Part shown: positions 19,105-22,224 of the stretch, in pieces | Layout of the letters: each line of letters starts with the position of its first letter | Numbering within the stretch: the first letter of the stretch is position 1 | NCBI GenBank assembly: GCA_016125285.1 | Contig: WGMA01000016.1 | Span: 1-64,000, forward strand | Origin: Phycisphaera sp. | GTDB taxonomy: Bacteria; Planctomycetota; Phycisphaerae; Phycisphaerales; Zrk34 | Direction of reading: 5' to 3' | Length of the DNA stretch: 64,000 nt | Program-made: the position numbers and the translations under genes | The notes under the pieces: generated by a model | Database searches by the model: none | The model's input: the letters and a program-made list of their open reading frames with translations, nothing else | What the model was told of the DNA's origin: nothing

Positions 19105-20487
19105 TCACGTGTACTTCTTCAGATAATGCCGGAACTGGTGGTACGTCAGGCCCAGCGACCGCGCCGCCTCCGCCTGATTGCCCCCCGACTGCGTCATCGC
19201 GTCCTGGATCAGCCGGCGGCTGAACTCGTCGACCTTCTCCGTGAACGTGCCCTTCGCCATCACACGCTCCGCGGCGAGCATGCCGATGTCCTCCGGCGTG
19301 ATCTCGTTGGTCGTGTCGCGGTACGCCGCACGCTCGATGATGTTCTTCAGCTCGCGCACATTGCCGGGAAAGTCGTACTTCCGCAGCATGTCGATCGCCG
19401 CGTCGCTCAGCACCTTGCCCGCGAACGTCGGGATCTCCCGCGCGAACTGCTCGAGGAAGTGCTGCGCCAGCGGTGCGACGTCCGCCTTGCGCCGACGCAG
19501 CGGCGGGGCCTCGACCACCTCGAAGCTCAGCCGGTCGTACAGATCGCTGAGGAACTCGCCGCGCTTGATCTTCGCCTTGAGGTCGACGTTGGTCGCGGCG
19601 ATCACCCGGCAGCGCGTCGTCAGGTCCGTGTGCCCGCCGACGCGGTGGAACGTGCCGTACTCCACGACGCGGAGGATCTTCTGCTGGAACGACGTCGACA
19701 TGTGGCCGATTTCGTCGAGGAACAGCGTGCCGCCGTTCGCCTGCTCGAACTTGCCGCGTCGCATCTCGTCGGCGCCGGTGAACGCGCCGCGCTCGTGGCC
19801 GAACAGCTCGCTCTCCAGCAGCGCGTCGCTGAACGCGGCGCAGTTGACCACGACGATCGGCCGCGTCGGGTCTCCCCCGGCGTCGTGGATCGCGCGGGCC
19901 ACCAGCTCCTTGCCCGTGCCGCGCTCCCCGACGATCAACACCGGTCGCGGCACGGTCGCCACGCGTGTGATCGTGTCGATCAGCTTCTTGACCGCGGGGC
20001 TGCGCCCGACGATGCGGAACTGCGGCTCGACGGCCTCCCGCAGTGACGCGTTGGCGCGGTCCAGCGACGCGGTCCGCTCCAGCATGTCGAACAGCCCGTG
20101 CAGCTTGCCCATGAGCGTCGTGACACGCTGCGTCAGCTGCCCGCCGAGCACCAGGAAGTCCGTCGCGCCCGCCGCGATCGCCGCCGCCGCCGACGCCACG
20201 TCGCCGTGCTCCGCGACGACCACCACCGGTGACGGCGTCGTGTGGCGCTGCCGCGACAACGCGTGGATGCGTCGCACCATCGTCAGCCCGTCGGTCTTGC
20301 CGTCGCCGCGCTCGCTGTGCACGATCACCGCGAACAGCCGATCCGCGTCGCCCAGCCGCCGTGTCATCTCCGCCTCGCTCGACACGCACGTTACGCCGCA
20401 GCGCCCCTCCGCGGCGTCGCTCAACGCGTCACGCAGATCACTCAGATCGATCCCCGCCGGTTCCAGAATCAGCACCGTCCGCTGCAT
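19105..20487 (-). CDS. Sigma-54-dependent transcriptional activator (bacterial enhancer-binding protein) with atypical N-terminal receiver-like domain and C-terminal Fis-type HTH
   Basis: The AAA+ sigma-54 interaction domain has 'GERGTGKE', the 'GAFTGA' motif and 'ELFGHERGAFTG'. The C-terminal HTH is 'QAEAARSLGLTYHQFRHYLKKY'. The N-terminal domain lacks the canonical DD acid pocket (VLILEP) and lacks the phospho-Asp (IVHSERG). Confidence 0.9.
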   Translation of the reverse strand: MQRTVLILEPAGIDLSDLRDALSDAAEGRCGVTCVSSEAEMTRRLGDADRLFAVIVHSERGDGKTDGLTMVRRIHALSRQRHTTPSPVVVVAEHGDVASAAAAIAAGATDFLVLGGQLTQRVTTLMGKLHGLFDMLERTASLDRANASLREAVEPQFRIVGRSPAVKKLIDTITRVATVPRPVLIVGERGTGKELVARAIHDAGGDPTRPIVVVNCAAFSDALLESELFGHERGAFTGADEMRRGKFEQANGGTLFLDEIGHMSTSFQQKILRVVEYGTFHRVGGHTDLTTRCRVIAATNVDLKAKIKRGEFLSDLYDRLSFEVVEAPPLRRRKADVAPLAQHFLEQFAREIPTFAGKVLSDAAIDMLRKYDFPGNVRELKNIIERAAYRDTTNEITPEDIGMLAAERVMAKGTFTEKVDEFSRRLIQDAMTQSGGNQAEAARSLGLTYHQFRHYLKKYT

Positions 20488-20507
20488 GGCCGCAGTATAA
20501 CTTCGCG

Positions 20508-20545
20508 ATCCTCACGATGTGGTGAAATTCACTAGCATTAGTGAA
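20508..20545. promoter_or_regulatory. Two adjacent GTGA-N-TCAC palindromes (GTGAAATTCAC and TAGTGAAAATCACTA), candidate EBP/operator site
   Basis: Read directly: ggtgaaattcactagcattagtgaaaatcactatatcc in an AT-rich stretch. It lies about 20-60 nt upstream of the sigma-54 activator start on the minus strand and about 80-110 nt upstream of the divergent -24/-12 element. Confidence 0.55.
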
Positions 20546-20620
20546 AATCACTATATCCTCCAGGACATTAGAAAATACGTATCTTTATTAAATAAAGAGC
20601 ATTATGCGTAATTTTGGCTC

Positions 20621-20636
20621 TGGCACGTCTGTTGCA
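20621..20636 (+). promoter_or_regulatory. Sigma-54 (-24/-12) promoter: TGGCACG-N4-TTGCA
   Basis: The sequence tggcacgtctgttgca matches the RpoN consensus TGGCACG-N4-TTGCW exactly. It is oriented toward the + strand genes at 20686 and 21172. Confidence 0.7.
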
Positions 20637-20685
20637 TTGTGATAGGCGGGGAGAGCGACGATCACTGGAAGAAAGGATCAGAGGG

Positions 20686-21051
20686 ATGCATAGCTCCCGC
20701 AAGATATCGGTACGCGACTGGCTCACGAGACTGGCCATCCTCGGCATCGTCAGCTTCATGGTGATTGGCGCCGAGCAGGTCACGCTTCAGTGGACCTACC
20801 CCACGACGCTCAGCGAGCTGGCCGTTCAGCAGCTCGAGGCGTCGAACGACGTCGCCGAGGCGATGCGTATCCAGAGCGACCTGCGGCACACGCTGACGAT
20901 GGTCTGCGAGTCGCTGGTCGTGGCGGTCGCGCTGGTCCTGTTCACCGGCCCCGTAGTGGCGCTGTTCCAGCGTCGCACCTCCGACGAAGGCGCAGGCGAT
21001 CGCGATGACGACGCCGACGCCGCCGCGCTCCGGCGCGCGCGGGGCGCCTGA
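20686..21051 (+). CDS. Small membrane protein (hypothetical), candidate sigma-54-dependent transcript
   Basis: The ATG at 20686 is in frame with track ORF 20614..21051. There are two TM helices, 'LAILGIVSFMVIGA' and 'LVVAVALVLFTGPVVALF', and an acidic C-terminus. The gene is downstream of the -24/-12 element. Confidence 0.45.
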   Translation: MHSSRKISVRDWLTRLAILGIVSFMVIGAEQVTLQWTYPTTLSELAVQQLEASNDVAEAMRIQSDLRHTLTMVCESLVVAVALVLFTGPVVALFQRRTSDEGAGDRDDDADAAALRRARGA

Positions 21052-21171
21052 ATCACCACCCGCCACTGAATCCTCGTTGACCCGTGCGCCAAACGTGCGC
21101 GCCGGGAAGACGCCTCACACCCACACGCGGCTCGGCCGCGCACGCTCACCGTACGTGAAAGGACACCGAAG

Positions 21172-22224
21172 ATGACACGCCAAACACTCAAACTGCTCGT
21201 CACGCTCACGCTCGTCGCCGTCATGACCACCGGCTGCAAGCCGTACGATAAGCCCGAATTCGAGGAGATTGACACCTCGGAGACCGGCTTCCTCATCCCG
21301 CTCGAGGGCGACACGACCAAGCAACAGTCGTTCGAGTCGGAGACCTACCTCGACCAGCGCAAGGTCGCGGCCAAGCGCGTCGAGATCCCGCACCGCTGGG
21401 TGCAGACCGGCCGCGCGTGGTGGGCCGGTCAGTGGATGGACATGGTCCGCCTGGTGAAGGTCGACCGCTCGCCGGTGACGCGCGAGTGGACCGCCGAGGC
21501 GACCAGCGGCACGTCGAAGGCGAACCAGGCGATCTGGATCGAGTCGAAGGACTCGGTCGGCTTCAGCGTCGGGTTCAACTGCACGGCGTACATCCAGGAG
21601 CCCAACACGGCCAAGTTCCTCTACATGTACCGCAGCAAGTCGCTGGCCGACATGATGGACACCGAGGTGCGTGCGCGCATCCAGTCCGTCGCCGCGGAGG
21701 TCGCCGCGGAGTACGACCTCGACGAGCTCCGCTCCAAGAAGCAGGAGATCATCGACAAGGTCCGCACCGATGTCATCCCGTTCTTCGAGCAGCGTGGCAT
21801 CAGCATCACCACGATCGGCATGTTCGGCGGGTTCACCTACCAGAACGTCGCCATCCAGAACGCGATCGACGAGACGTTCGTCGCGCAGCAGCTGAAGGTC
21901 GTGGCCGACGCGAAGCTCAAGGCGCAGCTCAAGGAGAACGAGGTGATCGAGCTCGCCGCGAAGGCCGAGGCGAACAAGGCCGAGACGATCGCCACCGGCG
22001 AGGCCGCCGCGATCACGAAGGTCGCCGAGGCGACGTCCAAGGCGCAGAAGGACCCGCTGTTCATCCAGCTGCGACTGCTCGAGGTCGAGAACGCCCGCAT
22101 CGCCAAGTGGGACGGCAAGTACCCCGTCTACATGATGCAGCTCGGCCAAGGCGACACCCAGACCCAAGCGCCGCAGATGCTCCTGCAGCTTCCTCCTGTC
22201 AGCGCGACCAGCGTGTCCCGCTGA
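21172..22224 (+). CDS. SPFH/band-7 (stomatin/prohibitin/HflK-like) domain lipoprotein
   Basis: The lipobox 'LTLVAVMTTGC' is present. The central SPFH-like region is 'FLYMYRSKSLADMMDTEVRARIQSVAAEVAAEYDLDELRSKKQEII'. The C-terminus is a coiled coil rich in A/E/K, typical of band-7 proteins. Confidence 0.65.
   Translation: MTRQTLKLLVTLTLVAVMTTGCKPYDKPEFEEIDTSETGFLIPLEGDTTKQQSFESETYLDQRKVAAKRVEIPHRWVQTGRAWWAGQWMDMVRLVKVDRSPVTREWTAEATSGTSKANQAIWIESKDSVGFSVGFNCTAYIQEPNTAKFLYMYRSKSLADMMDTEVRARIQSVAAEVAAEYDLDELRSKKQEIIDKVRTDVIPFFEQRGISITTIGMFGGFTYQNVAIQNAIDETFVAQQLKVVADAKLKAQLKENEVIELAAKAEANKAETIATGEAAAITKVAEATSKAQKDPLFIQLRLLEVENARIAKWDGKYPVYMMQLGQGDTQTQAPQMLLQLPPVSATSVSR

Follow-up and report, generated by a model that had tools for sequence, protein, structure and literature searches.

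The DNA analysed here is a 64-kb stretch from the start of contig WGMA01000016.1 of a Phycisphaera sp. genome (hereafter the window). Near position 20,500 it carries two divergent transcription units. One consists of the gene for a sigma-54 enhancer-binding protein (the activator). The other is a two-gene operon encoding a small protein with two transmembrane (2-TM) segments and a predicted lipoprotein of the SPFH/Band-7 family. The locus combines a complete activator, a conserved pair of upstream sites, a promoter at conserved spacing from them, a recurrent class of target genes and an activator N-terminal domain that has lost its phosphorylation pocket. Taken together, it is very probably a divergent activator/target unit of the sigma-54 system. 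For the activator and the SPFH protein, identical sequences exist at NCBI; public annotations of the genes are generic ('NtrC family response regulator', 'hypothetical protein'). The features are:

19105-20487, minus strand: gene for the sigma-54 enhancer-binding protein, 460 amino acids (Pfam, AlphaFold, Foldseek)
19111-19233, minus strand: Fis-type helix-turn-helix (HTH), residues 419-459 of the activator (HTH_8, 35 bits; cut-off 22)
19282-20013, minus strand: AAA+ sigma-54 interaction domain and lid, residues 159-402
20017-20136, minus strand: long helix alpha-5/linker, residues 118-157 (DSSP on the AlphaFold model)
20137-20487, minus strand: predicted N-terminal pseudo-receiver, residues 1-117, (beta-alpha)5 fold (hhalign, AlphaFold)
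20517-20534, plus strand: putative upstream activator site A, ATGTGGTGAAATTCACTA (matrix score 28.6 bits, the highest in 64 kb)
20539-20556, minus strand: putative upstream activator site B, ATATAGTGATTTTCACTA in minus-strand letters (24.4 bits, second-best in the window)
20557-20620, no strand: AT-rich spacer between sites and promoter, GC 0.35-0.38, with a presumed role in looping or bending
20621-20636, plus strand: predicted sigma-54 promoter TGGCACGTCTGTTGCA, -24 GG at 20622-20623 and -12 GC at 20634-20635
20686-21051, plus strand: gene for the small 2-TM membrane protein, 121 amino acids, first gene of the operon
21172-22224, plus strand: gene for the SPFH/Band-7 lipoprotein (predicted), 350 amino acids, second gene of the operon (Pfam, AlphaFold, lipobox)

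The region between the activator gene and the gene for the 121-residue protein is 198 bp long. An earlier reading of the letters without database searches (the sequence-only reading) described it as unusually AT-rich. This holds: GC content is 0.35-0.38 across 20500-20649, compared with 0.65-0.77 in the adjoining genes and about 68% for the flanks. Rfam and tRNA scans of this region and its surroundings give neither an RNA family nor a tRNA, and searches of 18500-22900 turned up no intrinsic terminator and no sigma-70-like promoter.

On every sequence criterion tested, the activator is a complete bacterial enhancer-binding protein, and ATP-dependent activation is predicted. Pfam reports Sigma54_activat (E = 1.7e-62; 210.4 bits against a cut-off of 20.2), AAA_lid_14 and HTH_8. 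Among 44 homologues, Walker A (GERGTGKE) and Walker B (FLDEIG) are invariant. The GAFTGA motif occupies residues 234-239 (nt 19771-19788), with G234, F236, T237 and A239 invariant; N437, A441, A442, R443, L447, Y449, Q451 and R453 of the HTH are likewise invariant. The activator with GAFTGA and a Fis HTH that had been proposed is thus borne out, complete in its AAA+ core, Walker motifs, lid and HTH. The AlphaFold model, built from the 44-sequence alignment (predicted local distance difference test, pLDDT, 91.4), consists of a (beta-alpha)5 N-terminal domain, a 40-residue helix, the AAA+ domain and the HTH. The best Foldseek match to this model is the inactive-state NtrC1 dimer construct 1ny5; NtrC4 (3dzd), NtrX, FleQ and LuxO follow. 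The activator does not reach the cut-off of any curated NCBIfam equivalog; the best is PspF (TIGR02974), with 348 bits against a required 443.55. PADLOC matches were dismissed, as they reflect only generic AAA+/HTH similarity to RtcR and PspF.

The sigma-54 promoter is an exact match to TGGCAC-N5-TTGC. GG and GC are spaced exactly 10 nt apart within TGGCAC-N5-TTGCW, and the element is oriented towards the operon on the correct strand, 50 nt from the ATG at 20686. It is the only match in the window on both strands, at zero mismatches and at up to one. By chance, 64 kb would hold 0.19 exact matches, so the motif alone is not significant; at least one match occurs in 17 of 100 shuffles. The call becomes convincing because of its placement (intergenic, on the right strand, at that distance from the ATG and with the activator adjoining) and its conservation. 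GG-N10-GC is present at the equivalent position in 17 of 17 other loci, where the element ranges from the perfect TGGCAC-N5-TTGC to CGGCAT-N5-ATGC. The exact promoter proposed at 20621-20636 stands as it was described.

Two short palindromes lie upstream of the promoter, GTGAAATTCAC at 20522-20532 and GTGAAAATCAC at 20541-20551. The pattern GTGA-N3-TCAC occurs six times in the window, where 1.15 matches are expected and none of 100 shuffles reaches six; the other four matches fall outside the activator/121-residue intergenic region. A weight matrix was trained on the sites of the other loci, with the window left out. Sites A and B are its two best matches in the window; the next-best score 15.9 and 15.1 bits, and the maximum over 20 local shuffles is 18.6. 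Site B is inverted relative to site A, with a spacer of 4 bp and a centre-to-centre distance of 22 bp. The consensus of the 18-bp sites across loci is ATGTGGTGAATTTCACCA. The predicted upstream binding unit is an inverted pair of 18-mers, of which the 11-bp palindromes are the cores. The two adjacent palindromes of the sequence-only reading do exist and are conserved; the range given for them (20508-20545) is off by about 6-14 nt, and the unit is the 18-mer pair. In the window, the centre of the pair lies 85 bp from the -24 GG. A Rayleigh test of helical phasing on the site-to-promoter distances gave no discrimination between periods.

The other loci come from two sources. A genome scan with the SPFH alignment gave 80 loci (L001-L080). 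In L001, L003-L009 and L079, which are annotated as, or resemble, Planctomycetota, a divergent activator gene (57-67% identical) lies about 550-600 bp upstream of the SPFH gene. Eight more loci were obtained by look-ups of activator homologues (L161-L163, L165, L167-L170); L164 is a near-duplicate of L163, and L166 of L165. The activator gene adjoins the target operon in 16 further loci, which belong to Phycisphaerae, Pirellulales, Planctomycetales, Sedimentisphaerales and Kiritimatiellae; in one more (L002) the operon is unlinked.

All 17 of these loci share one layout: site pair, gap, GG-N10-GC and target operon. They include both classes of Planctomycetota as well as Kiritimatiellota. When the loci are aligned on the promoter, the site pairs are usually inverted, with centres 16-25 bp apart. 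The gap to the -24 GG is 77-107 bp, and in 10 of 18 loci (the window counted) it is 84-87.5 bp. The sequence between the conserved elements shows no obvious similarity.

An SPFH/Band_7 gene is present in the target operon in 15 of the 17 other loci, and different SPFH subfamilies are included. The targets are:

Most loci: a 2-TM protein paired with an SPFH protein of about 345 amino acids
L163: a fused 2-TM-SPFH protein of 453 amino acids, Blastopirellula-type
L165: a paralogous pair of 102 and 246 amino acids
L168: a GntR-like protein of 125 amino acids and a Band_7 protein of 380 amino acids
L169: Band_7 proteins of 574 and 503 amino acids
L170: Band_7 proteins of 733 and 344 amino acids
L161, 3868-4827, minus strand: a multi-TM protein of 319 amino acids with an acidic tail
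L162, around 4790-4830: a short hydrophilic open reading frame (ORF), followed by an extracytoplasmic function (ECF) sigma factor

The first protein of the operon in the window has two hydrophobic segments and positive charges at both ends, which suggests cytoplasmic termini and a periplasmic loop of about 40 residues. It belongs to no Pfam or NCBIfam family, and PADLOC and a PDB sequence search give no specific family. A small ORF occupies the same position in orthologous loci; a match to the 121-residue protein is detectable only in L009 (36% identity).

The second protein scores 26.3 bits against Pfam Band_7 (cut-off 23.6). Its AlphaFold model (pLDDT 73) contains the SPFH sheets and a 67-residue coiled-coil helix at 226-292. 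Foldseek matches the model to prohibitin, stomatin, HflK/C (7vhq, 9cz2), erlin and QmcA (8z5g), with E-values from 3e-10 to 1e-7. Profile searches with the protein find no solved structure at E <0.01, and NCBIfam and PADLOC give no specific family. The N-terminus, MTRQTLKLLVTLTLVAVMTTG immediately followed by C, has the form of a lipoprotein signal and fits the PROSITE-type lipobox pattern. All 26 SPFH homologues compared have the lipobox C22, and G21 is conserved in at least 90%; the protein is a predicted lipoprotein. Pfam, the lipobox and the fold matches all agree with the targets originally named for the promoter, a small membrane protein gene and an SPFH/band-7 lipoprotein gene.

In L163 the 2-TM and SPFH proteins are fused in frame; because of this fusion, the small protein and the SPFH protein are expected to act together. 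Fusion ORFs of about 450 amino acids are found in L163 (3452-4813, minus strand) and also in P0145, P0154 and P0157, in Blastopirellula/Bremerella-type genomes. Among cultured bacteria, Blastopirellula marina and Bremerella volcania (homologues P0110 and P0157) have the orthologous locus, as do the complete Phycisphaeraceae chromosomes OY771506.1 and OY763327.1. The lipobox cysteine (Cys22 in the window) stays invariant in the middle of these fused proteins.

Loci L010-L078 are from Verrucomicrobiota and carry SPFH orthologues that are 50-60% identical. No such activator lies within 5 kb in about 60 verrucomicrobial SPFH orthologue loci. A promoter-like match with no more than two mismatches is found in 6 of 62 non-linked loci (nearly all verrucomicrobial), compared with 7 of 9 linked loci. 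From these comparisons, it appears that only the lineages of Planctomycetota and Kiritimatiellota have the sigma-54 control.

In L169 (Kiritimatiellae), the site pair is beside the target promoter, downstream of the activator gene and not at the activator start. In the Pirellulaceae metagenome-assembled genome JAWKTN01, the unlinked SPFH operon L002 (4300-4620) has GG-N10-GC and a weaker, site-like inverted pair. The activator gene of this genome is on another contig (L165/L166, 4680-5010), where it faces the paralogous small-protein/SPFH-like pair of 102 and 246 amino acids. Because of L169 and L002, the sites are tied to the sigma-54 promoter and not to the activator gene's own promoter. The comparison of L002 with L165/L166 indicates that the regulon can exceed one operon, with operons acted on in trans. 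The unit had been called self-contained; activator, sites, promoter and targets do stand together here, and the unlinked L002 operon means that the term may be too strong.

The N-terminal domain of the activator was compared with 46 canonical receivers from paralogous activators, and with CheY and NtrC. The paralogous activators were collected by a metagenome scan with the peptides GERGTGKE and LESELFGH; they are paralogues only, at no more than 49% identity. Pfam Response_reg gives 19 bits for the domain, under the cut-off of 30.2. In hhalign, the N-terminal domain of the family matches the canonical receivers with a probability of 99% (E = 2.5e-18), and AlphaFold predicts a receiver fold of alternating strands and helices from beta-1/alpha-1 to beta-5/alpha-5 with pLDDT >90. 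A search with this domain alone of a representative library of 1.84 billion proteins returned 53 matches at E <= 0.001, mostly fragments; with so few matches, the domain is divergent.

The hhalign register places D12, D13, D57, T87 and K109 of CheY opposite E9, P10, H57, A92 and L114 of the activator, with a two-residue insertion after H57. Strand beta-3 of the AlphaFold model ends at H57, which agrees with this register. These replacements extend through 117 homologues. The D13 column has Pro in 88 and Asp in none, and the T87 column has Ala in 112. The K109 column contains Arg in 69, Leu in 24 and Lys in none. The D57 column holds Pro in 58, His in 33 and Asp in 22. The domain is thus a predicted pseudo-receiver, without a Mg2+/phosphate pocket throughout the family, and since the pocket is lost it would not be switched by ordinary His-Asp phosphotransfer. 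The sequence-only reading had claimed the loss of both the acid pocket and the phospho-acceptor Asp. The alignment finds no Asp and replaced pocket residues; the acid pocket is not wholly gone, as E9 is acidic.

The beta3-alpha3 loop (residues 57-63, nt 20299-20319) is where the two-residue insertion relative to canonical receivers is found. Just past the lost phospho-site is a semi-conserved G-D-G (G in 67, D in 71 and G in 70 of the 117 homologues). This loop could be a new ligand or partner contact.

The proposed mechanism is as follows. The activator would bind the inverted 18-bp pair at 20517-20556 through its Fis-type HTH, as the conservation of site and HTH suggests. By analogy with the family, it would assemble an ATPase ring and, looping over the AT-rich spacer of about 85 bp, remodel sigma-54 RNA polymerase at 20621-20636. 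Transcription is expected to start near 20646 and to read through the 2-TM and SPFH genes. Their products would cooperate at the membrane; in some relatives they are a single polypeptide. The activator gene is probably autoregulated, because the sites lie 30-70 bp upstream of its start codon. Given the kind of genes targeted, the unit probably serves a response concerned with the envelope or with membrane organisation.

NtrC1 and DctD receivers form a repressing dimer through the alpha4-beta5-alpha5/linker surface. In the activator family, all N-terminal columns that are invariant among the 44 homologues lie within residues 95-149, which correspond to alpha-4, beta-5, alpha-5 and the linker. 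Because of this conserved face, the long linker helix and the best structural match, 1ny5, the N-terminal domain most likely dimerises and, like its counterparts in NtrC1 and DctD, holds back ring assembly. A cue other than phosphorylation, such as a ligand or a partner protein, would lift this brake.

A number of observations weigh against this interpretation. Taken alone, the exact promoter match would arise by chance in a window with a probability of about 0.17. No RpoN box lies within the 64-kb window; Planctomycetota do have a documented rpoN (RB6491 in Rhodopirellula baltica; PMC2754498), and sigma-54 regulons have been predicted in Planctomycetia and Phycisphaerae (PMC12316311). In each of L165, L002 and L168, one or both of the top two site matches are weak, at 5-8 bits. 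The 18 loci are phylogenetically related and are not independent observations. L161 and L162 face non-SPFH genes, so the SPFH link is frequent and not absolute; L161 carries the closest activator homologue (65% identity), and the site pair and sigma-54 promoter are kept in both loci. The brake model is drawn from a predicted monomer structure and from analogy. Lastly, ungapped pairwise alignments (MAFFT; phmmer against the DctD receiver 1l5y) set E59, and not H57, opposite the phospho-Asp. The phospho-acceptor Asp is absent under either register; as a Glu mimic, E59 may give constitutive activity.

This last point leads to the reading that the N-terminal domain is inert or locked 'on', with E59 or the remodelled loop mimicking phospho-Asp and output set only by the amount of activator, through autoregulation at the shared sites, and by the availability of sigma-54. 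Asp-to-Glu substitutions activate some NtrC-type regulators. The pairwise register of E59 is in keeping with such a state, as are the overlap of the sites with the activator's own upstream region and the lack of a kinase or conserved partner gene adjoining the unit in the 18 loci. However, the E59 column is variable among the 117 homologues (Arg in 27, Glu in 26, Asp in 14, and others), and profile and structural evidence favour H57 as the equivalent residue. Strong conservation of the alpha4-beta5-alpha5/linker region also speaks for a domain that still has a regulatory function, and against decay. A locked or inert domain is therefore unlikely.

A further reading adds a sensor function to the divergent unit. 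The system would be a phage-shock analogue specific to the Planctomycetes-Verrucomicrobia-Chlamydiae (PVC) group and built on SPFH proteins, in which the pseudo-receiver senses not phosphate but the state of the membrane complex that is its own target. The periplasmic loop of the 2-TM protein could touch a cage of the SPFH lipoprotein, and its two cytoplasmic tails could contact the pseudo-receiver. In this way the target would itself restrain the activator or set it free, much as PspF is controlled by PspA. This idea is speculative and we regard it as rather doubtful; if true, no dedicated transcriptional sensor of SPFH-microdomain status would precede this one.

The activator could also be a conventional response regulator, phosphorylated on a non-canonical residue by an unlinked histidine kinase or via a neighbouring REC protein. 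The REC gene (18742-19092, plus strand; Response_reg, 41.8 bits) is convergent with the activator gene, with stop codons 12 bp apart. The receiver fold of the activator and the Asp at the D57-equivalent column in 22 of 117 homologues would suit this explanation. However, Pro, Ala and Leu stand at the D13, T87 and K109 positions here, and none of the 117 homologues has Asp at the D13 column or Lys at the K109 column. A tblastn search of L001-L080, a set that includes nine activator-linked loci, gives no match to the REC gene, and the gene lists of the other eight activator-linked loci contain no receiver-only gene; moreover, the REC protein is without the DD pair and the Lys. The sequence-only reading had suggested the REC protein as a partner. 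This candidate was rejected, as the gene is missing from the searched loci, is not conserved with the unit and encodes an atypical receiver. Phosphorylation of the conventional kind is very improbable.

That the -24/-12 match and the palindromes are chance products of an AT-rich region, with a sigma-70-type promoter reading the operon, is hardly credible: an exact motif is expected 0.19 times per window and short AT-rich palindromes are common in AT-rich DNA, but both elements are kept in 17 loci from at least two phyla amid surroundings of no obvious similarity, the independent matrix singles out both sites, and no sigma-70-like promoter was found in the intergenic region (planctomycete promoters being poorly defined).

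The preferred reading, a sigma-54 activator under a non-phosphorylated brake, can be compared with several known systems. NtrC1 (Aquifex aeolicus) and DctD (Sinorhizobium) have a receiver-AAA+-HTH architecture, and a receiver dimer together with a coiled-coil linker controls them negatively. The activator shares their domain order, long alpha-5/linker helix and alpha4-beta5-alpha5 conservation, and the DctD receiver 1l5y is its best N-terminal sequence match (E = 1.2e-5). Unlike NtrC1 and DctD, which have an intact D-D-D-T-K set and are switched by phosphorylation, it has E-P-H-A-L in the pocket and no linked kinase.

FleQ and FlrA are also sigma-54 activators with an aspartate-less receiver, and FleQ (8p53) is among the top fold matches. 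The genes under FleQ control are flagellar and biofilm genes, and FleN and cyclic di-GMP regulate FleQ at its AAA+ domain. The activator described here differs from it in targeting SPFH membrane-protein operons and in having its own conserved 18-mer site; sequence identity is about 30%. Like FleQ, it can be counted among the known activators whose receivers are aspartate-less, in a previously undescribed but conventional sigma-54 unit.

As in PspF-PspA, a sigma-54 activator gene and a membrane-stress-type operon diverge, and the upstream sites are located between them. In contrast to PspF, which has no N-terminal domain, the activator has one, and the target is an SPFH protein with a 2-TM partner instead of PspA/IM30. 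Assignment as a PspF equivalog was rejected on these two grounds and on the score below the TIGR02974 cut-off.

The target operon resembles HflK/C-FtsH and QmcA-YbbJ/NfeD, in which an SPFH protein with a long coiled coil faces the periplasm and has a small membrane partner in its operon. Unlike the partner in QmcA-YbbJ/NfeD, the 2-TM protein is not NfeD-like (no Pfam hit), and the SPFH protein is anchored via a predicted lipobox and not by a TM helix.

To our knowledge, the regulation of bacterial SPFH proteins (stomatin-, prohibitin- and flotillin-like) is largely unknown, and sigma-54 regulons of Planctomycetota are known almost only from motif scans. No description of this activator subfamily, of its site or of sigma-54 control of SPFH genes was found in the literature. 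The present comparison defines a conserved activator subfamily, an 18-bp recognition site, a promoter layout and the usual SPFH targets in Planctomycetota and Kiritimatiellota. It provides a testable handle on the timing of SPFH membrane-scaffold production. It is also a clean case of a sigma-54 activator receiver repurposed away from phosphotransfer, and a system for studying non-phospho control of NtrC1-type activators. Since such activators are currently labelled 'NtrC family response regulator', better annotation is possible.

The two ORFs 3' of the SPFH gene are conserved in none of the compared loci. The REC protein at 18742-19092 is atypical in having TY in place of the DD pair (MILVATYSS) and N in place of Lys (CLNNP); the phospho-Asp is kept (AILDANLP). 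A second response regulator, encoded at 15676-16710 on the minus strand and 2.4 kb from the unit, has no evident link to it. This protein combines a receiver with an HD-GYP-type HD domain (Pfam HD_5, E = 2.2e-24), and its receiver is fully canonical (VVDDD...LADWEMP...LLTGH...IIKPF).

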